Below are positions 3,342-52,069 of a DNA stretch of 64,000 bases, piece by piece. Below the pieces are notes generated by a model that saw only the letters and a list, made by a program, of their open reading frames with translations, was not told the DNA's origin and searched no databases. Made by a program: the position numbers and the translations under genes. The stretch comes from Clostridiaceae bacterium (GTDB lineage Bacteria > Bacillota > Clostridia > Oscillospirales > Acutalibacteraceae). The stretch lies in contig JAEEWM010000005.1 in assembly GCA_016287385.1 (NCBI GenBank), forward strand, positions 8,746-72,745, written 5' to 3'. The first letter of the stretch is position 1. Each line of letters starts with the position of its first letter.

Positions 3342-4445
3342 ATGAAAAAAGTTTTTTGTGTGATTCTTGTTATCAGCGCTCTTTTCGCCGCGGGATGTCC
3401 GGTTTACGCCGTCTCGGCGAAAGCGGCGGTTGTCATAAACGGCGATACGGGTGATATCCTCTATTCAAATAACGCCGATGTGCGGCTGCCCATGGCGAGC
3501 ACGACTAAAATAATGACCGCCCTGATACTGCTTGAAAACTGCGCCGACCTTGACGGCGAGATAGTGACCGCAAAGGAAATGGTTACGGTAGAGGGCTCGT
3601 CAATGGGTCTGCTTGAAGGTGACAGGGTATCATATCGCGCTCTGCTTTACGGTATGATGCTTGCCTCCGGCAACGACGCCGCGAATACTGTGGCGATAGC
3701 TATCGGCGGCAGTGTTGAAAAATTTGTCGGTATGATGAACGCAAAAGCCGCCGAACTGAATCTGAAAAGCACTCATTTCGTGACGCCCTCCGGTCTTGAC
3801 GCCGAAGGGCATTATACAACGGCGTACGAGTTGGCGCTGATTACCCGCGAGGCGCTTAAAAATCCAGATTTCGCGCTTGCCGCCGCGGCAAAAAGCGCAA
3901 CGCTCTGCTACGGAAACCCGCCGTATCGCAGAACGCTTACAAATCATAACAGGCTCCTTTTTATGTATGACGACGTAATAGGCGTCAAAACCGGGTTTAC
4001 GAAGAAATCGGGCAGATGCCTTGTATCCGCCGCCAAAAAGGACGGCAAATACGTAATAGCCGTGACGCTTAACGACGGCGACGACTGGGCTGACCACCGC
4101 TTTTTGCTTGACGCGGGGCTCGGCGCCATAGAGGTTTACGATTATAAGCAGGAGAGCAAAACCTTATCCATCCCCGTGATAGGCGGCGAGTTTGAAGCGG
4201 TCGAAGGGGTCGCCGGCGCCGCCGGGTTTTCAATAACCAAGGGACAGGACGTAAAGATAGCGGTTTGCGCTCCGCGTTTTCTGTACGCGCCGGTTGAGGA
4301 AAACGCCGTCGTCGCAAGTATAGAGTATTACGGCGCCGGCAGACTTTTATATAAAAGCAATGTGACGGTAAAGCGCGTCGGTGAAAAAAAGATTTCAAAG
4401 CTCAATCTGTTTTTTGAAATATTCAAAATCATTCTCGGGAGTTAG
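3342..4445 (+). CDS. serine-type D-Ala-D-Ala carboxypeptidase (PBP5/DacB-DacF class)
   Basis: Signal peptide, then SxxK (ASTTK), SxN (SGN) and KTG motifs in canonical order. ATG 3342 chosen; the ORF-track start is 3333. Confidence 0.85.
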   Translation: MKKVFCVILVISALFAAGCPVYAVSAKAAVVINGDTGDILYSNNADVRLPMASTTKIMTALILLENCADLDGEIVTAKEMVTVEGSSMGLLEGDRVSYRALLYGMMLASGNDAANTVAIAIGGSVEKFVGMMNAKAAELNLKSTHFVTPSGLDAEGHYTTAYELALITREALKNPDFALAAAAKSATLCYGNPPYRRTLTNHNRLLFMYDDVIGVKTGFTKKSGRCLVSAAKKDGKYVIAVTLNDGDDWADHRFLLDAGLGAIEVYDYKQESKTLSIPVIGGEFEAVEGVAGAAGFSITKGQDVKIAVCAPRFLYAPVEENAVVASIEYYGAGRLLYKSNVTVKRVGEKKISKLNLFFEIFKIILGS

Positions 4446-14541: not shown

Positions 14542-15783
14542 ATGCGATATGTTAAACTGATTTTCAGGATATTGTTTTTTACGGCGCTGCTGTTCTGCGT
14601 TACGGTGTTTACCGCTGTTATAGTTATGAACAAAACGGTCAGCCGCGAGTACAAAATAAACCGCGGCGACACCTTCAGAATCGAGTCATCCATACCGGTA
14701 ACGGTGGATTTCAAAGGGGCGAAAGCCTCGATAGAGGATTACTGTAACGTAGGCGACGTATTTGACGTGGATTTGAAAATTCTCGGTGTAATACCGTTCA
14801 GTAAGGCGAGCGTCACGGTGGTGGATGAAACCTACGTTTCTGTGCTCGGTACGCCGTTCGGTATGAAAATATACACCGACGGTCTGCTTGTGATATCTAC
14901 CGGCAGGGTCGAAACGAAATCCGGCGCGGTAAACCCCGCCGAAGACGCGGGCGTTAAGGTCGGCGATTATATAAAGAGCGTAAACGGCGAGCGGATAAAC
15001 TGTAACGAGGACCTGGTGACCGCGGTCATAGAAAGCGGCGGCGAAACACTCAAACTCGAAATAACGCGGGAGGGTAAAGCGCGTGAAGTGTCGGTAACTC
15101 CCGCGCTTGATAAGGACGATAACCTCTACCGTATAGGAGTGTGGGTGCGCGACAGCTCCGCGGGCGTCGGAACGCTCACCTTTTACAGCCCGGTAAGCGA
15201 CGTGGTGTGCGGACTCGGTCACGGTATATGCGACCGTGACACGGGCAAACTGCTCGTGCCCGAGCGCGGCGAGCTGGTCGGTGCGGAAATAATATCGGTC
15301 ATAAAGGGCAACGCGGGTGAACCGGGCGAGCTTAAAGGCAGATTCACGGGGGAGAGAATATCCGATATGGCTCTTAATTCGGATAACGGCGTTTACGGTA
15401 ATCCTTATGAACCGCTTGATACCTCGAAGCTCACGAAAGTCGCGTATAAACAGGATATCAAAAACGGCGACGCGCAGATACTTTGTACCGTTTCGGGCGG
15501 TAAGCCGAAGCTTTACTCCTGCCGCGTTCAGAAGCGCGCGGGCGCTTACGATTATGAAACGCAAAACATGATAGTCACCGTGACCGATAAGGAGCTTATC
15601 GCCGCCACGGGCGGAATAATACAGGGTATGTCGGGCAGTCCGGTACTTCAAAACGGCGAGCTTATAGGCGCCGTGACCCACGTTTTTGTCGACGACCCCA
15701 AAAGGGGCTACGCCGTCTTTGCCGAAAATATGCTCGACACCGCGGCGGGCGTCGCGAAAAGACGCCTTAAAAAGGCGTCCTGA
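14542..15783 (+). CDS. spoIVB: stage IV sporulation protein B, SpoIVB peptidase (S55)
   Basis: N-terminal TM, PDZ region, and the S55 catalytic region GGIIQGMSGSPV. Confidence 0.9.
   Translation: MRYVKLIFRILFFTALLFCVTVFTAVIVMNKTVSREYKINRGDTFRIESSIPVTVDFKGAKASIEDYCNVGDVFDVDLKILGVIPFSKASVTVVDETYVSVLGTPFGMKIYTDGLLVISTGRVETKSGAVNPAEDAGVKVGDYIKSVNGERINCNEDLVTAVIESGGETLKLEITREGKAREVSVTPALDKDDNLYRIGVWVRDSSAGVGTLTFYSPVSDVVCGLGHGICDRDTGKLLVPERGELVGAEIISVIKGNAGEPGELKGRFTGERISDMALNSDNGVYGNPYEPLDTSKLTKVAYKQDIKNGDAQILCTVSGGKPKLYSCRVQKRAGAYDYETQNMIVTVTDKELIAATGGIIQGMSGSPVLQNGELIGAVTHVFVDDPKRGYAVFAENMLDTAAGVAKRRLKKAS
15759..15779. repeat. left copy of the 21-bp direct duplication flanking element copy A
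   Basis: AAGACGCCTTAAAAAGGCGTC, identical to 16085-16105. It is itself a hairpin and lies inside the last codons of spoIVB. Confidence 0.95.
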
Positions 15784-16084
15784 GCGTGTCGAAAAAGTCG
15801 ACACGCTCTCGGACGGGAATTCCGTTCGCCGAAAATTGAAAATTTTCGGACTGCACTCCACTCCCGCCAATACCACCCACGCCCCTTGAAAATCGCCTTT
15901 TCGTGTTTTTTGCTTATCAGAAGCAATTATTCAAGGAACGGAAATGATTTGTTTTTTCGTTTACCGCAATCATGAAAATGCGATTTTCGCCTATAAGGTG
16001 TTTTTCCGCCGCGCATGTCACCGGAAAAACAAAATGCGCAGCTCACGCCGCGCGGATCTCAACAACAGGTTTTCAGGCATACTG
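15780..16084 (+). mobile_element. structured ~305-bp non-coding repeat element, copy A
   Basis: Aligns along nearly its whole length with the reverse complement of 25124-25425. It is a chain of hairpins with no ORF conserved between copies, and is bounded by a 21-bp direct duplication. Confidence 0.7.
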
Positions 16085-16105
16085 AAGACGCCTTAAAAAG
16101 GCGTC
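16085..16105. repeat. right copy of the 21-bp direct duplication (ghost spoIVB 3' end)
   Basis: Same 21-mer. Read in the spoIVB frame it continues TCT TAA, reproducing the ...KKAS-stop ending. Confidence 0.95.
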
Positions 16106-16148
16106 TTAAACGTGCGCCCGGATTTTTGCGAAATACAGCTTTTTGCCC

Positions 16149-16177
16149 TTTACAAACACGGCGTTTCGTGGTATATT
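16149..16177 (+). promoter_or_regulatory. sigma-A type promoter of the beta-helix gene
   Basis: TTTACA, 17 nt, TATATT, with TGg immediately upstream of the -10. Confidence 0.55.
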
Positions 16178-16206
16178 TCATTTGAGAAATTTCGGAGGGC
16201 GATTCT

Positions 16207-24311: not shown

Positions 24312-25091
24312 ATGGCTGGCTTTTTCGGTCTTTTTAATTACGAAAAGGAAGGACCCGGTATTGATAAGGACGCGCCGAAGAAAAAAACCTTCGTTGTGTT
24401 TTTTGAAATGTTCAAAATAAACTTTTGGAAGTTTATCCCGATAAATCTCGTTTTTTTGCTTTTGAACGTGCCGCTTTTAACCGGCGGTCTTGCAAACGCG
24501 GGTATCACGCATGTTGTAAGGAACACGGCGAGGGATAAGCATTCCTTCGGTATGAGCGATTTTTTCGAGACAATAAAGAAAAACTGGAAGCAGTCGCTTA
24601 TAGCCGGCATAATCAATATTGTAATACTGTTTCTTGCGACCTCCGCGGCGTGGTTCTATTTTAAGGAGTACAGCGCAACGGGTCGGATCATATGGCTTGT
24701 CGGTTTAAGCGTTACGCTTTCGCTTCTTATGATATTTACCTTTGCTAAGTTTTATATCTGGACTATGCTTATCACCTTTAACCTGCCGCTTTCCGCAATA
24801 TATAAAAACGGCTTCAGGTTTGCGTTTATAAATCTTTTCCGTAATATTCTGGTCGGTCTGCTTTTGCTTGTCACCTATGCGATTTACGGCGTTCTTATCT
24901 GGTTTTTGCCCGGACCGCTCAGACTTATTGTGATACTTCTCGCCGTATGTACTCTGCCGGCTTACAGATATCTTATGATACAGTTTGCGGCTTTCCCGGC
25001 TATAAAGAAGTATATGATAGACCCGTATTACGAGGAGCACCCGGATATGGATATTGAAAAACGCAGGAATTTAGGACTTTTAGACGAATGA
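24312..25091 (+). CDS. YesL family (DUF624) membrane protein
   Basis: MAGFFGLFNYEKEGPGIDKD...F..F..F..NFWKFI start is typical of DUF624, followed by multiple TM helices. Confidence 0.7.
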   Translation: MAGFFGLFNYEKEGPGIDKDAPKKKTFVVFFEMFKINFWKFIPINLVFLLLNVPLLTGGLANAGITHVVRNTARDKHSFGMSDFFETIKKNWKQSLIAGIINIVILFLATSAAWFYFKEYSATGRIIWLVGLSVTLSLLMIFTFAKFYIWTMLITFNLPLSAIYKNGFRFAFINLFRNILVGLLLLVTYAIYGVLIWFLPGPLRLIVILLAVCTLPAYRYLMIQFAAFPAIKKYMIDPYYEEHPDMDIEKRRNLGLLDE

Positions 25092-25094
25092 GAT

Positions 25095-25123
25095 CATCCG
25101 GCAGGATCACCCTGCCGGATATT
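25095..25123. repeat. left copy of the 29-bp direct duplication flanking element copy B
   Basis: CATCCGGCAGGATCACCCTGCCGGATATT, identical to 25426-25454. Contains the hairpin ATCCGGCAGG/CCTGCCGGAT. Confidence 0.95.
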
Positions 25124-25425
25124 GCTGTTAAAAGCCCGTTTTCAACTATTTGCGCAGCGTGAGCTGCGCATTTTGTTTTTCCGGTGACATGTGCGGCGGA
25201 AAAACACCTTATGAGCGAAAACTGCCTTTTTATGATTACGGTAAACAGAAAAACGGAATAATCTATGCTTCTTTAATAATTGCTTCTGATAAGCAAAAAA
25301 TACGAAAAGGCAGTTTTCAAGGGGCGTGGGTGGTATTGGCGGGAGTGGAGTGCAGTCCGAAAATTTTCATAATTTTCGGCGAACGGAATTCCCGTCCAAG
25401 AGCGTGGCGGCATTTTCGACACGCG
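25124..25425 (-). mobile_element. structured ~302-bp non-coding repeat element, copy B (inverted relative to copy A)
   Basis: Its reverse complement aligns with 15780-16084. On the plus strand it begins with the terminator-like TGCGCAGC-gtga-GCTGCGCA plus TTTTGTTTTT (25151-25180). Confidence 0.7.
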
Positions 25426-25454
25426 CATCCGGCAGGATCACCCTGCCGGATATT
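25426..25454. repeat. right copy of the 29-bp direct duplication
   Basis: Identical 29-mer, 331 bp from the left copy. Confidence 0.95.
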
Positions 25455-25495
25455 TCTATACCCCTTTGTCATAAAATTATGACGGAGGGGTTTTT

Positions 25496-25783
25496 ATGAT
25501 ATGCAGAATTGACGAAATGAAGGATAAACAGGTCGTCTGTGTAAACGACGGCTGCGTTCTCGGTTACGTTTCGGATATTGAGCTTGATACCGAAAAAGGC
25601 GTGCTGACCTCTGTTGTTATCTACGGCAGACTTCGGTTTTTCGGTCTTCTCGGCAGGGACGAGGATATTGTTATACCGTTTGAGGATATTAAGGTCATCG
25701 GGGAGGAGACCGTGCTCGTTTCAACACAATGCGGCGCCGGTTTTGCCGGAACCGGGACTAAGAGGCGCTTTACTACCTTGTAA
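25496..25783 (+). CDS. ylmC: YlmC/YmxH family sporulation protein (PRC-barrel)
   Basis: ICRIDEMKDKQVVCVNDGCVLGYVSDIELD...GRDEDIVIPFEDIKVIGEETVLV pattern. Confidence 0.85.
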   Translation: MICRIDEMKDKQVVCVNDGCVLGYVSDIELDTEKGVLTSVVIYGRLRFFGLLGRDEDIVIPFEDIKVIGEETVLVSTQCGAGFAGTGTKRRFTTL

Positions 25784-32969: not shown

Positions 32970-33053
32970 GCGGGTGTGGCGGAATTGGCAGACGCGCCAG
33001 ACTTAGGATCTGGTGTCACCGACATGCAGGTTCGATCCCTGTCACCCGCACCA
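32970..33053 (+). tRNA. tRNA-Leu(TAG): tRNA-Leu (anticodon TAG)
   Basis: Acceptor GCGGGTG/CACCCGC, anticodon arm CCAGA-CTTAGGA-TCTGG, long variable arm, T-arm GGTTCGATCC, encoded CCA. Confidence 0.9.
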
Positions 33054-33056
33054 TGA

Positions 33057-33092
33057 AAAAAGTCTCTTTTGTTTACCAAAAGAGACTTTTTT
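33057..33092 (+). terminator. rho-independent terminator after tRNA-Leu
   Basis: AAAAAGTCTCTTTTG-tttac-CAAAAGAGACTTTTT plus T. Confidence 0.85.
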
Positions 33093-33094
33093 CA

Positions 33095-33267
33095 ATGATA
33101 TCCGTTCCTTATCGGAACGGATGATATACCTTCGGTATGATATCCATAAAGGATGATATATGCCTCCGGCATATGAAGGAACGGATATTATATCATATTG
33201 CGACGAAGGAGCAATATATCACGCCGCGCTTAAACGCGGTATATCATGCGGCGAAGCCGTATATCAT
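33095..33267. repeat. array of short hairpins punctuated by the 7-mer ATGATAT and its complement ATATCAT
   Basis: ATGATAT at 33095, 33121, 33137 and 33153, with degenerate ATGAAGG at 33173. Then ATATCAT/C at 33190, 33216, 33241 and 33261. Intervening 9-19 nt segments are each self-complementary, e.g. CCGTTCC-ttatc-GGAACGG, ATGCC-tcc-GGCAT, ATTGC-N9-GCAAT, GCGGC-gaa-GCCGT. Confidence 0.85.
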
Positions 33268-33420
33268 TAAATGCATTATTCATTAAATCAAGCGTGTGGG
33301 GTTTTCTGCCGGACGAGATTCGCCCGCCGCAACGCGGCGGCACGCACGCGGGCTTTGCGACCGTTCGCTGAAAGGTCGCAATTTGCTCCGCAAACCGCCC
33401 TGTTCGAATCTCTGCCTTAT

Positions 33421-33459
33421 AAGAAATATCCCCATACCGCAAAAGCGGTATGGGGATAT
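33421..33459 (-). terminator. rho-independent terminator of the tRNA-Met/tRNA-Glu unit
   Basis: ATATCCCCATACCGC-aaaa-GCGGTATGGGGATAT. On the minus strand it is followed by TTCTT. Confidence 0.75.
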
Positions 33460-33460
33460 T

Positions 33461-33536
33461 TGGTGACCCGGACGAGATTCGAACTCGTGTTACCGCCGTG
33501 AAAGGGCGGTGTCTTAGGCCTCTTGACCACCGGGCC
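33461..33536 (-). tRNA. tRNA-Glu(TTC): tRNA-Glu (anticodon TTC)
   Basis: Minus strand reads GGCCCGGTGGTCAAGAGGCCTAAGACACCGCCCTTTCACGGCGGTAACACGAGTTCGAATCTCGTCCGGGTCACCA. Cloverleaf is intact and CCA is encoded. Confidence 0.9.
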
Positions 33537-33538
33537 GG

Positions 33539-33615
33539 TGGTGGCTGTAATTGGATTCGAACCAATGACACTCCGGGTATGAACCGAATGCTCTAGCCAA
33601 CTGAGCTATACAGCC
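33539..33615 (-). tRNA. tRNA-Met(CAT): tRNA-Met, elongator type (anticodon CAT; Ile2-lysidine not excluded)
   Basis: Minus strand reads GGCTGTATAGCTCAGTTGGCTAGAGCATTCGGTTCATACCCGGAGTGTCATTGGTTCGAATCCAATTACAGCCACCA. G1-C72 pair and no GGG/CCC anticodon stem, so it is not an initiator. Confidence 0.85.
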
Positions 33616-50551: not shown

Positions 50552-52069
50552 GTGCATAATAAAAACAGATTTTTAAGTGTGTTTTTGTGCGTGACTCTTC
50601 TTTTTTTGTCGGTTTTTACGCAAAAAACGTCGGCTTTGGCACAAACCGGTCGAATAACGGGCGACGGCGTTAATATGCGAAACAAACCCGATTCCGGCAA
50701 TTCCGAAATAATAACCACGCTCAGTAAGGATACGGTGGTGCAGATAGATGAAAAGGTCACCGGCAACGAGGCGGAAAGCGGAAGCGGTAATATCTGGTAT
50801 AAGGTGACGGCGGCGGGTAAAACCGGTTATGTTTACGGTAAGTATGTTCAGCTTATCAATTCGCCGGATTACGACGGAAATTTTGAAAAAAATCTTCTTA
50901 ATTTCCCCGAAAGCTACCGGGCGGCGCTTCGTGAAATACACGCGGCGTATCCCAACTGGGTATTTATCGCGGATAACGTGGATATCAGTCTTGACGCCGC
51001 GATAAATCTTGAATACGGCGGCGATAATATCTTTGCCACAAAAAAGCGCGTTGAACTTACCTACGGTATCGAATGGTATGACAGCCGCGTGGTCGCAAAT
51101 GACGGTAAATATATTGACGAGGGCAGGTGGACGTATCCGTCGAAGCAGGCGATAGCCTTCTTTATGGACCCCCGAAACGCGCTTAAAATATCCGGCGATA
51201 AAGGTTCTTTTCCGAATATATTTACTTTTATGCAGCAGTCATACGACGCGGGTGTTCAAACCGCAGAGGGACTCAGAACGGTTGTAAAAAACACTTTTCT
51301 TGAAAACGGCTACGGCGGTGTTAAAGACGCCTATATAACGGATATTATGAACGCGGCGAGAGAATCGGGAGTAAGCCCCTATATAATAGCCGCGACCATA
51401 ATAACCGAGCAGGGTACAAACGGAACAAGCTCGCTTATCAGCGGTACGTATAAGGGATACGAAGGTTATTATAACTTCTTTAACTACGGCGCGACGGGTG
51501 ATAACGTCATTAAAAACGGTCTTGAATACGCGAAAACGAACGGCTGGAACAGCCGCGCCGCGTCGATAACCGGCGGTGCCGTTAAATACGGTTCCGGTTA
51601 CATAAGCAAAGGGCAGGATACTTATTATTATATGGATTTCAACGTTAAAACGCCCTCTAAAATATCGCACCAGTACGCCACAAGTCTTTATGACCAGTGC
51701 GTAAAGGCGTCGAGCGCGAAAAAAGCTTATATTTCAAATACAAGCGGCGCGCTTACCTTCAAAATACCGGTTTACAGCAGTATGCCGGAAAAGGTTTACG
51801 CCGCTCCGAGCATAGCGGATATGGCAAGCTCCGGCGGAAGTCAGAATCAAGGCGGGCAGACGGGTCAGACTGAAAGAAAAAAAGGTGACATCAGCGGTGA
51901 CGGTATAATAAACGGTAAAGACCTTGCAATGCTGAAATCCTATCTTTTAGGGCTCAGAACACTTACCACAGAGGAAAAAACCTATGCCGAAGTAAGCGGG
52001 GATAATCAGCTCAACGGAAAAGACCTCGCAATTATAAAAATGTATCTTTTAGGGAACAGGACGCTGTGA
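50552..52069 (+). CDS. secreted SH3b + glucosaminidase-type peptidoglycan hydrolase with C-terminal dockerin
   Basis: Signal peptide and SH3b (GRITGDGVNMRNKPDSG...WYKV...GYVYGKYV). Glucosaminidase core (VSPYIIAATIITEQG...YNFFNYGA). Two dockerin Ca-loops, DISGDGIINGKDLAMLKSYLLG and VSGDNQLNGKDLAIIKMYLLG. Confidence 0.8.
   Translation: MHNKNRFLSVFLCVTLLFLSVFTQKTSALAQTGRITGDGVNMRNKPDSGNSEIITTLSKDTVVQIDEKVTGNEAESGSGNIWYKVTAAGKTGYVYGKYVQLINSPDYDGNFEKNLLNFPESYRAALREIHAAYPNWVFIADNVDISLDAAINLEYGGDNIFATKKRVELTYGIEWYDSRVVANDGKYIDEGRWTYPSKQAIAFFMDPRNALKISGDKGSFPNIFTFMQQSYDAGVQTAEGLRTVVKNTFLENGYGGVKDAYITDIMNAARESGVSPYIIAATIITEQGTNGTSSLISGTYKGYEGYYNFFNYGATGDNVIKNGLEYAKTNGWNSRAASITGGAVKYGSGYISKGQDTYYYMDFNVKTPSKISHQYATSLYDQCVKASSAKKAYISNTSGALTFKIPVYSSMPEKVYAAPSIADMASSGGSQNQGGQTGQTERKKGDISGDGIINGKDLAMLKSYLLGLRTLTTEEKTYAEVSGDNQLNGKDLAIIKMYLLGNRTL

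Follow-up and report, generated by a model that had tools for sequence, protein, structure and literature searches.

Structure-directed insertion into terminator hairpins has been described mainly for IS1272 and TnSha1 of the insertion sequence (IS) family IS1182, which target stem-loops of about 21–38 bp in either orientation and with no primary-sequence specificity, often at confirmed terminators just downstream of genes (PMC4923244, PMC5678879). During this process IS1272 deletes the stem-loop, wholly or partly, and leaves no duplication (PMC4923244, PMC5678879). Pathway b in Fig. 13 of Wan et al. 2017, a hypothetical branch of their model that is not illustrated by natural examples, predicts that the stem-loop is duplicated in full should the 3′ ends of the transposon attack a cruciform at its 5′ feet (PMC5678879). 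Exactly this product is seen in the element described here, which is present in two copies, A and B, in a 64,000-nucleotide stretch of the Clostridiaceae bacterium assembly GCA_016287385.1 (Acutalibacteraceae; contig JAEEWM010000005.1, positions 8,746 to 72,745 of the forward strand), hereafter the window. Our main subject is copy B, which lies on the minus strand between two copies of a 29-bp hairpin sequence downstream of a gene encoding a DUF624 (YesL-like) protein. We consider it very likely that copy B is a hairpin-duplicating mobile element, and probable that it represents one copy of a 220–340-bp non-coding, non-autonomous DNA transposon, i.e. a MITE (miniature inverted-repeat transposable element), of uncultured ruminant and gut Clostridia that is served in trans by an IS1182/IS1272-type enzyme. 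The kind of process, hairpin-targeting transposition, probably of the IS1182 type, is known already; the outcome is a variant, a structure-defined, variable-length duplication by a non-autonomous element, natural examples of which we did not find documented in the literature searched. The original prediction, which had been made from the bare sequence, suggested an undescribed mechanism, a claim that has to be withdrawn as hairpin-directed insertion is published for IS1272/TnSha1 and whole stem-loop duplication is predicted there (PMC4923244, PMC5678879).

Besides removing the stem-loop without a target-site duplication (TSD) where the element duplicates it, IS1272 is autonomous with a length of about 1.9 kb and a transposase of 548–569 aa, whereas the element is short and non-coding, and the two share no sequence similarity beyond ends that weakly resemble each other. 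The inverted repeats (IRs) of IS1272/TnSha1 are 16 bp long and variable, and their terminal sequences are sometimes tandemly duplicated, comparable to tail-plus-hairpin duplications at two of our loci (L017, L021). IS1397, ISKpn1 and IS110-family hunters of repetitive extragenic palindromic (REP) sequences insert into extragenic palindromes as well, recognising a specific repeat family and generating short or no TSDs. The palindromic target is thus common to the element and to IS that target REPs or bacterial interspersed mosaic elements, but the hairpins hit by the element are single-copy and unrelated to one another. Class C group II introns, ribozymes of at least 600 nt that usually carry a reverse transcriptase, insert after terminator stem-loops by structure and without duplication, whereas the element has 220–340 nt, no Rfam intron match and a flanking duplication. 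Palindrome-associated transposable elements of the IS200/IS605 type feature subterminal hairpins, lie 3′ of a conserved 4–5-nt target and lack TSDs; the element, in contrast, has TSDs, and the bases before its left end differ at each locus.

Insertion of copy B into a terminator hairpin

The reverse complement of copy B aligns with 15782–16053 of copy A at 89.4% identity over 273 nt, and one 38-nt core is identical between the two copies and present nowhere else in the window. No further element copies or solo ends were detected in the window beyond A and B. The flanking 29-mer CATCCGGCAGGATCACCCTGCCGGATATT has exactly two occurrences in the window, both perfect and at the positions originally predicted (Table 1), and no extra copies were found there with up to 3 mismatches permitted, the chance expectation being 0. 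Its hairpin at 25096–25120 consists of a 10-bp stem (arms 25096–25105 and 25111–25120) with a folding energy of −20 kcal/mol, a stability reached by 0 of 2782 background windows, and begins 4 nt past the DUF624 stop codon, just where a hairpin behind a yesL-like gene had been proposed. As the target itself reads CA at 25426–25427, the boundary of copy B can be placed only to within 2 nt. The 1–4 nt previously placed between the repeat and GCGTGTCGA turned out to be the element's own conserved terminus, (C)TGA, and the 31-nt tail described as non-conserved is in fact conserved within the family (...GGTTTTTTGACAGACTG), though less well.

With the PRC-barrel protein encoded downstream as an exact query, we retrieved site B from metagenome contigs of the same species, with flanks about 98–99.98% identical to the window. 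Seven contigs (L032, L033, L035–L038, L041) hold an empty site with one hairpin, no element and a 74-bp spacer between the DUF624 and PRC-barrel genes, while two (L034 and L039) are filled. Alignment of the filled site against five of the seven empty sites gives the order left flank, hairpin, element, hairpin, right flank, and a duplicated segment of 27–29 bp that includes the entire stem-loop. Since contigs of the same species hold the empty site with its single hairpin, copy B is a real insertion that some strains have and others lack, with a TSD that contains a whole hairpin. Both repeat copies carry the same 1-nt loop difference to the empty alleles, as expected if one target gave rise to both. 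In contig ERZ27279995 k141_94491 copy A is present and site B is empty, which makes B the younger insertion. This contig and JAEEGJ010047605 of GCA_016295205.1 belong to the species of the window.

These alleles also bear on the idea that the element is a structured small-RNA gene that happens to have a common REP-like hairpin on either side, the flanking being coincidental. Both strands of the element fold significantly better than shuffled sequences (z = −3.9 and −4.3), block 2 is strongly conserved, and compensatory changes occur occasionally, as in L020 (TTGG/CCAA to CCGG/CCGG), which would all suit such a gene. The flanking hairpins, however, are locus-unique: in about 600 kb of collected sequence the 29-mer and the 21-mer of copy A are confined to their own loci, each is single in the empty alleles, and presence of the element varies within one species, so that the 29-mer is no abundant REP. 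Folding of both strands (−39.7 vs −59.3 kcal/mol) is what DNA palindromes would give, and the covariation terms of −0.26 and −1.76 kcal/mol are near zero. The H3 loop reads TGAATAA in some copies and TTATTCA in others (L010, L012 and L021 vs L013 and L016), flipping its orientation between copies, and the two TSD hairpins of L020 (1870–2140) differ only in reverse-complemented loops, GGTTTC vs GAAACC. Such loop inversions suggest palindrome flipping at the DNA level, not a trait of a selected RNA. No Rfam family was obtained for the element at the gathering threshold or at E ≤ 10; the gathering-level matches of the window were three tRNAs, and the best match over 15700–16200 did not fall below E = 2. 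We regard a REP-flanked RNA gene as highly improbable, and the empty sites rule it out as the full explanation, while an RNA function beside mobility is possible.

Copy A and related copies at other loci

Copy A is filled in 5 of the 6 contigs retrieved with SpoIVB, and two more contigs that were retrieved with the downstream protein (L076, L078) run into it. In the outgroup species L079 and L082, whose SpoIVB proteins are 84–85% identical, spoIVB ends in ...TCT TAA A, matching the right-hand repeat copy plus flank of the filled allele, and the pre-insertion allele thus ended in TCT TAA. Insertion of copy A duplicated a 21-bp hairpin, and the TGA of the element became the spoIVB stop codon. 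Contigs L045 (3718–3760) and L077 (1381–1420) lack the element and read hairpin-CTGAGCG-CGCCCGG, in which CTGAGCG is the left terminus of the element. We considered them as ancestral empty sites for copy A and rejected this, as the outgroups mark both as secondary deletions; these are imprecise, with 7 element nt retained, the right repeat and 9 nt of flank lost, 1-nt microhomology and an unaltered SpoIVB protein. In L042, from a strain with about 1.3% divergence, H2 of the orthologue of copy A shows a compensatory double change from CCGAAAAT.. to CCGAAATTT.., and the loop of the otherwise invariant block 2 is scrambled (L042 ~3810–3830 and 3990–4010 vs window 15829–15849 and 16000–16030); these changes could reflect decay or a faulty assembly.

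When two of the conserved blocks were each used as an exact search pattern, related copies at other loci came to light in ruminant and gut Clostridia metagenome-assembled genomes and metagenomes, several of them cut by contig ends as expected of a repeat. Nine loci with readable junctions are each flanked by a duplication of their own local sequence, with lengths of 17, 18, 21, 27, 29, 29, 30, ~29 and 66 bp. At seven of the nine, what has been duplicated is an extreme hairpin, ranking at the 0.5th percentile or lower among background windows of equal length, and every flanking hairpin is confined to its own locus in the collected sequence. Next to the left end of the element the TSD stops at the hairpin's 3′ foot, and on its other side it reaches 0–3 nt beyond the 5′ foot, giving a TSD length of hairpin plus 0–3 nt. 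The targets are intergenic palindromes, mostly intrinsic-terminator hairpins just past stop codons, and are used in both orientations. The predicted independent insertions, each duplicating a terminator-like stem-loop of variable length, are hence borne out by the empty and filled alleles of site B, the outgroups at A and the unrelated hairpins elsewhere; of the nine duplications, seven hold a whole hairpin, and those of L021 and L005 cover one arm each. Five copies (L012, L013, L015, L016, L018) lack flanking repeats; they come from low-coverage short-read assemblies and have common right flanks and differing left flanks, and are probably chimeric joins across the repeat that count neither for nor against the TSD rule.

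A scenario without any transposon, in which template switching or microhomology-mediated repair at forks stalled by hairpins brought in a copy of some unrelated segment and duplicated the hairpin on the way, has to be weighed against this distribution. Replication does stall at hairpins, and the loop inversions together with the imprecise, 1-nt-microhomology deletions of L045 and L077 show that template switching or illegitimate recombination is at work at these loci. The scenario would hardly produce the constant left terminus TGAGCGTG and near-constant right terminus on unrelated targets in several host lineages, junctions without a microhomology requirement, or copies as similar as L011 and copy A, which are 97% identical at different loci. 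We therefore give this scenario very little credence.

Several further sequences resemble parts of the element. The left flanks of L017 (12038–12103) and L021 (~1270–1318) carry the 3′ tail of the element in diverged form ahead of the hairpin, which suggests repeated insertion into one hairpin followed by deletion. In L015 (~870–985), L018 (~540–655) and L024 (minus strand, ~1215–1330) an extra insert of about 110 nt lies within block 1; on the opposite strand it features a strong ribosome-binding site and a 21-aa open reading frame (ORF), MAPRSKKIRAPSDYFLWAPQE, or MAPRSKKIRAPGDRFLWTPQE in L024, and may be a remnant of the gene start of a parent element. L025 (1820–2030) carries block 2 and the tail TTTTTTGACAAAC without block 1 and without flanking duplication, between a formate-tetrahydrofolate-ligase operon and an SLH-domain gene (identities by eye from the translations), and is either a degenerate copy or a member of a related family. 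Blastn of the element against plasmid and phage collections gave no match, and in viral contigs scanned with four patterns the chance 16-mer matches were rejected by nhmmer, leaving a solitary H1-like hairpin in L031 as the sole notable result. In this contig (IMG/VR UViG_3300035512_000922) the exact H1 hairpin GCGTGTCGAAAAAGTCGACACGC stands at 923–947 directly past the stop of a phage gene and is followed by about 330 nt of structured non-coding DNA that has CTCGGACGGG in common with the element; this may be a remote relative, or the terminal hairpin may have originated here.

Element ends and a model for hairpin duplication

The element is bounded by TGAGCGTGTCGAAAAAG ... TTTTTTGACAGACTGA, or TGAGCGTGTCGAAAAAG ... 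CTTTTTTGACAGACTGA or variants, with the left end alone reading GAGCGTGTCGAAAAAGTCGACACGC; the left end TGAGCGTG is unchanged at loci with unrelated flanks. Imperfect terminal inverted repeats (TIRs) of 16 bp, TGAGCGTGTCGAAAAA / TCAGTCTGTCAAAAAA, match at 12 of 16 positions in L004 and at 10–11 of 16 in copy A, L010, L011 and L012, in constant register and with a chance probability of about 0.003–0.03, to be read with the copies' relation by descent in mind. At the right end a terminal hairpin with the IR as its outer arm, as formed by H1 on the left, is not evident. The element is dispersed, multi-copy, short and non-coding and shows insertion polymorphism with TSDs, all in accordance with a MITE; public assemblies have no gene called within it, and its ORFs are short and at chance level. 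Its lack of an own transposase is expected of a non-autonomous element, so that mobilisation in trans is compatible with it.

Since a variable TSD length, a precise left end next to a ragged right end, copies without the left 30 nt (L001, L005) and conserved internal blocks between variable hairpins would suit a retroelement, we considered a SINE-like (short interspersed nuclear element) origin, in which a transcript would be copied by a host or intron reverse transcriptase into a staggered hairpin nick, i.e. target-primed reverse transcription. H3, and H5 on the opposite strand, precede T-runs, however, and these internal terminator-like hairpins on both strands make a full-length RNA unlikely. 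Furthermore, neither of the two window copies showed a promoter-like site, the window encodes no reverse transcriptase, there is no A-tail or comparable 3′ signature, the TSDs follow palindrome boundaries instead of having random lengths, and the loops invert between copies in the manner of DNA palindromes. With termini as defined as these, target-primed copying, one of two mechanisms offered originally, is improbable; the other, staggered nicking around the stem-loop, is the one that we favour.

We propose that a transposase encoded elsewhere would bind the imperfect TIRs and the terminal hairpin and join the two element 3′ ends to both strands at the 5′ feet of a target palindrome that is cruciform-extruded or folded in single-stranded DNA. 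The attack points would be few nucleotides apart in space and one full palindrome apart in sequence, and gap repair would then copy the palindrome to either side and add the small intrinsic stagger of the enzyme, whereby palindrome length would set TSD length. Constant termini on unrelated targets, insertion in either orientation and duplications that track palindrome boundaries argue for such a trans-acting, structure-choosing transposase. The enzyme is most likely a DDE transposase of the IS1182/IS1272 type, a type favoured because this family picks hairpins by structure and has terminal repeats resembling the element ends; taken by itself, we rate an IS1182-type DDE mechanism at slightly better than even.

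The ends were compared with those of IS1272, taken from a plasmid of staphylococci, and of relatives found on plasmids of Clostridium, Bacillus, Enterococcus and Kurthia. The IRs of the compared IS1182-family elements, GGGGCTGTATCAAAAC, AAAGAGGTTGTCCCAAAAG, AAAGGGACTGTGACATAAG and AAGAGGCTGGGACAAAA, share the pattern G-R-G-N-N-TGT...AAAA with the element ends GAGCGTGTCGAAAAAG and (G)GCTGTCAAAAAG; for GGGGCTGTATCAAAAC and AAAGAGGTTGTCCCAAAAG the shared pattern runs on to AAAA(G/C). Counted by position, the left end of the element is identical to the ISBce1 IR at 12 of 17 sites, and the family IRs agree among themselves at 13 of 19. A position weight matrix built from IS1182 IRs alone peaks exactly at the left terminus in 8 of 15 copies with 4–5 bits. 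ISClbu1 and ISBce1 moreover have a hairpin at each end with the IR as outer arm, the same layout as H1, and at two different loci a palindrome is interrupted by a copy of ISClbu1. On the other side, these two ISClbu1 copies show no hairpin duplication, the end similarity is statistically modest, and no member with ends identical to those of the element is known. The IS1182 link is suggestive, not proven. The terminal hairpins of ISClbu1 and ISBce1 are located at 583–603 / 2405–2425 of L084 and 561–600 / 2329–2369 of L085. Comparison of two ISClbu1 loci (L090 vs L093) assigned 7 bp earlier counted as IR (AAAATAA/TTATTTT) to the target palindrome, and palindromic targets can thus inflate annotated IRs.

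A number of observations weigh against a MITE moved by an IS1182-type enzyme. An autonomous partner sharing the terminal hairpins, which the original prediction had suggested looking for elsewhere in the genome, was not found in the window or the collected loci: an IS1182-type gene is absent from all of them, tblastn with the IS1272 transposase gave no match in the same set, and a Pfam scan of 40 window ORFs revealed no transposase, which in the IS1182 family carries DUF772 / DDE_Tnp_1_6 domains. The collected ~600 kb contains no larger hairpin-flanked insert, and hairpin-repeat-flanked inserts of 100–4000 bp outside this family were likewise absent from the window and all collected loci. Characterised IS1182 members delete the hairpin (IS1272) or interrupt it (the two ISClbu1 copies), and none has been shown to duplicate it; IS1182-family direct repeats in ISfinder span 0–60 bp. 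At 4–5 bits the matrix likeness is weak, with a background tail of about 0.1–0.2%, and the right end is not recovered. The TIRs match at just 5 of 16 positions in copy B and, owing to shared descent, are not independent evidence between copies. The last 2–5 nt of the right terminus vary (ACTG, ATTG, ACCG, ATG, C, CC), which is unusual for a DDE transposon end, and the TSDs of L021 and L005 span one hairpin arm only.

Another candidate is a mobile element served by a non-DDE, structure-measuring integrase, e.g. a Cas1/casposase-like enzyme: the TSDs differ in length as dictated by the palindrome, DDE elements less typically have so ragged a right terminus, and no DDE partner was found in the window or the collected loci. 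CRISPR spacer integration at a DNA palindrome has a formally equal outcome, as Cas1-Cas2 attacks both borders of the palindromic repeat in a staggered manner and places the palindrome on both sides (PMC4940900). Cas1-Cas2 is sequence- and leader-directed and builds arrays from inserts of about 30–40 bp, however, whereas the element has a defined 220–340 bp, a different host hairpin at each locus and no cas genes nearby; none was found among the 40 window ORFs scanned against Pfam, and cas1, a CRISPR array and a leader are absent from the window. The element ends, including the layout of the terminal hairpin, resemble IS1182-type IRs, and no data point specifically to Cas1. Casposons have TSDs of about 14–15 bp and integrate in a sequence-directed manner, which also counts against a Cas1-like enzyme. 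We hold such an enzyme to be rather unlikely. In general terms, an integrase that reads DNA structure without a fixed stagger and cuts at the feet of any extruded palindrome, with the host hairpin setting the duplication (17–30 bp, up to 66 bp), is doubtful, and the IS1182-type transposase acting in trans remains our preferred enzyme.

Neighbourhood of the copies and implications

The coordinates and sequences of all features are collected in Table 1. Around both copies the window is entirely core chromosome, judged from the same 40 ORFs. A T-run hairpin equivalent to that of H5 in copy B is also present in copy A, and H5 of copy B could restore DUF624 termination. Downstream of the right repeat, at 25460–25491, a hairpin with a 14-bp stem, ACCCCTTTGTCATAAAATTATGACGGAGGGGT, with TTTTATG after it, overlaps both the start codon of the PRC-barrel gene and its Shine-Dalgarno sequence and is kept in all strains; it may act as ribosome-binding-site occluder or attenuator of this gene. 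Farther away, three tRNA genes at 32970–33615 (one on the plus and two on the minus strand) lie between a glycogen operon and a gene encoding an elongation factor G (EF-G)-like protein. The window also encodes a protein that combines an SH3_3 domain with a type I dockerin (50552–52069), which along with the ruminant gut source samples suggests a cellulosome-bearing rumen Clostridia host.

Table 1. Features of the window, anatomy of the element and flanking duplications at other loci
Feature	Position	Strand	Remarks
Copy B of the non-coding mobile element	25124–25425	-	302 nt; nhmmer E = 8e-65 against family profile
Left copy of 29-bp TSD, copy B	25095–25123	+	exact repeat; holds entire terminator-like hairpin of DUF624 gene
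Right copy of 29-bp TSD, copy B	25426–25454	+	hairpin keeps original T-rich tract after it
Upstream DUF624 (YesL-like) gene	24312–25091	+	Pfam PF04854, E = 1.2e-8; its terminator hairpin is the copy B target
Downstream PRC-barrel (YlmC/YmxH-like) gene	25496–25783	+	Pfam PF05239
Left end, copy B, with degenerate terminal hairpin H1 and IR	25402–25427	-	TGCGCGTGTCGAAAATGCCGCCACGC; family consensus TGAGCGTGTCGAAAAAGTCGACACGC
Conserved block 1, copy B	25321–25358	-	GGACTGCACTCCACTCCCGCCAATACCACCCACGCCCC (element strand); identical in copies A and B; kept in copies found by block-2 pattern
Long central hairpin H3, copy B	25217–25318	-	length and sequence differ among family members; loop inverted in some copies
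Conserved block 2, 9-bp-stem hairpin, copy B	25175–25205	-	GTTTTTCCG-CCGCACATGTCAC-CGGAAAAAC (element strand); best-conserved part of family
Hairpin H5 and T-run, copy B	25151–25180	+	TGCGCAGCGTGAGCTGCGCA TTTTGTTTTT; terminator-like on window plus strand, 27 nt downstream of first TSD hairpin
Right-end tail of copy B	25124–25150	-	element strand ...AATAGTTGAAAACGGGCTTTTAACAGC; short variant of family right terminus TTTTTTGACAGACTG(A)
Copy A of the element	15780–16084	+	305 nt; terminal (C)TGA at 15780–15783 is now the spoIVB stop codon
Left copy of 21-bp TSD, copy A	15759–15779	+	AAGACGCCTTAAAAAGGCGTC; hairpin overlaps final spoIVB codons
Right copy of 21-bp TSD, copy A	16085–16105	+	followed by fossil of original spoIVB end, GCG TCT TAA
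Left terminus of element, within H1			TGAGCGTGTCGAAAAAG; H1 = GAGCGTGTCGA / TCGACACGCTC
H1 in full, left end			TGAGCGTGTCGA-AAAAG-TCGACACGCTC; outer arm is the IR
Hairpin H2			second hairpin of element
Block 1			conserved, C-rich
Hairpin H3			in the middle, variable; the window copies have a long one
Block 2			invariant hairpin GTTTTTCCG...CGGAAAAAC
Hairpin H5			GC-rich
Right terminus of element			TTTTTTGACAGACTG(A)
L004 flanking duplication			29 bp
L010 flanking duplication			30 bp
L011 / L028 flanking duplication			27 bp
L020 flanking duplication			~29 bp; two hairpins with mutually inverted loops
L021 / L029 flanking duplication			17 bp; left arm of a terminator
L005 flanking duplication			18 bp; loop and right arm
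L017 flanking duplication			66 bp; hairpin and remnant of an earlier copy's tail

In the literature searched, whole-stem-loop duplication has so far only been predicted, in the IS1272 model. Here a flanking duplication is found at nine loci, seven of them with a whole hairpin, and is backed by empty-site proof at one locus (B) and outgroup support at a second (A). As the element carries terminator-like hairpins facing both ways, insertion behind genes would be nearly neutral, and an element that inserts at terminators in either direction and regenerates the hairpins could serve as an insertion tool once its transposase is found. Should the enzyme prove to be of a non-IS1182 type, Cas1/casposase-like or a novel integrase, the element would represent a free-living analogue of CRISPR repeat duplication and a natural system that places cargo at terminators and regenerates them. 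A palindrome that is repeated directly is at the same time an inverted repeat, so that hairpin TSDs can pass for terminal repeats of the element itself; this may be why the IRs of the IS1182 family look variable. TSD length can follow the secondary structure of the target instead of the transpososome, which bears on how IS1182-type enzymes recognise cruciforms.

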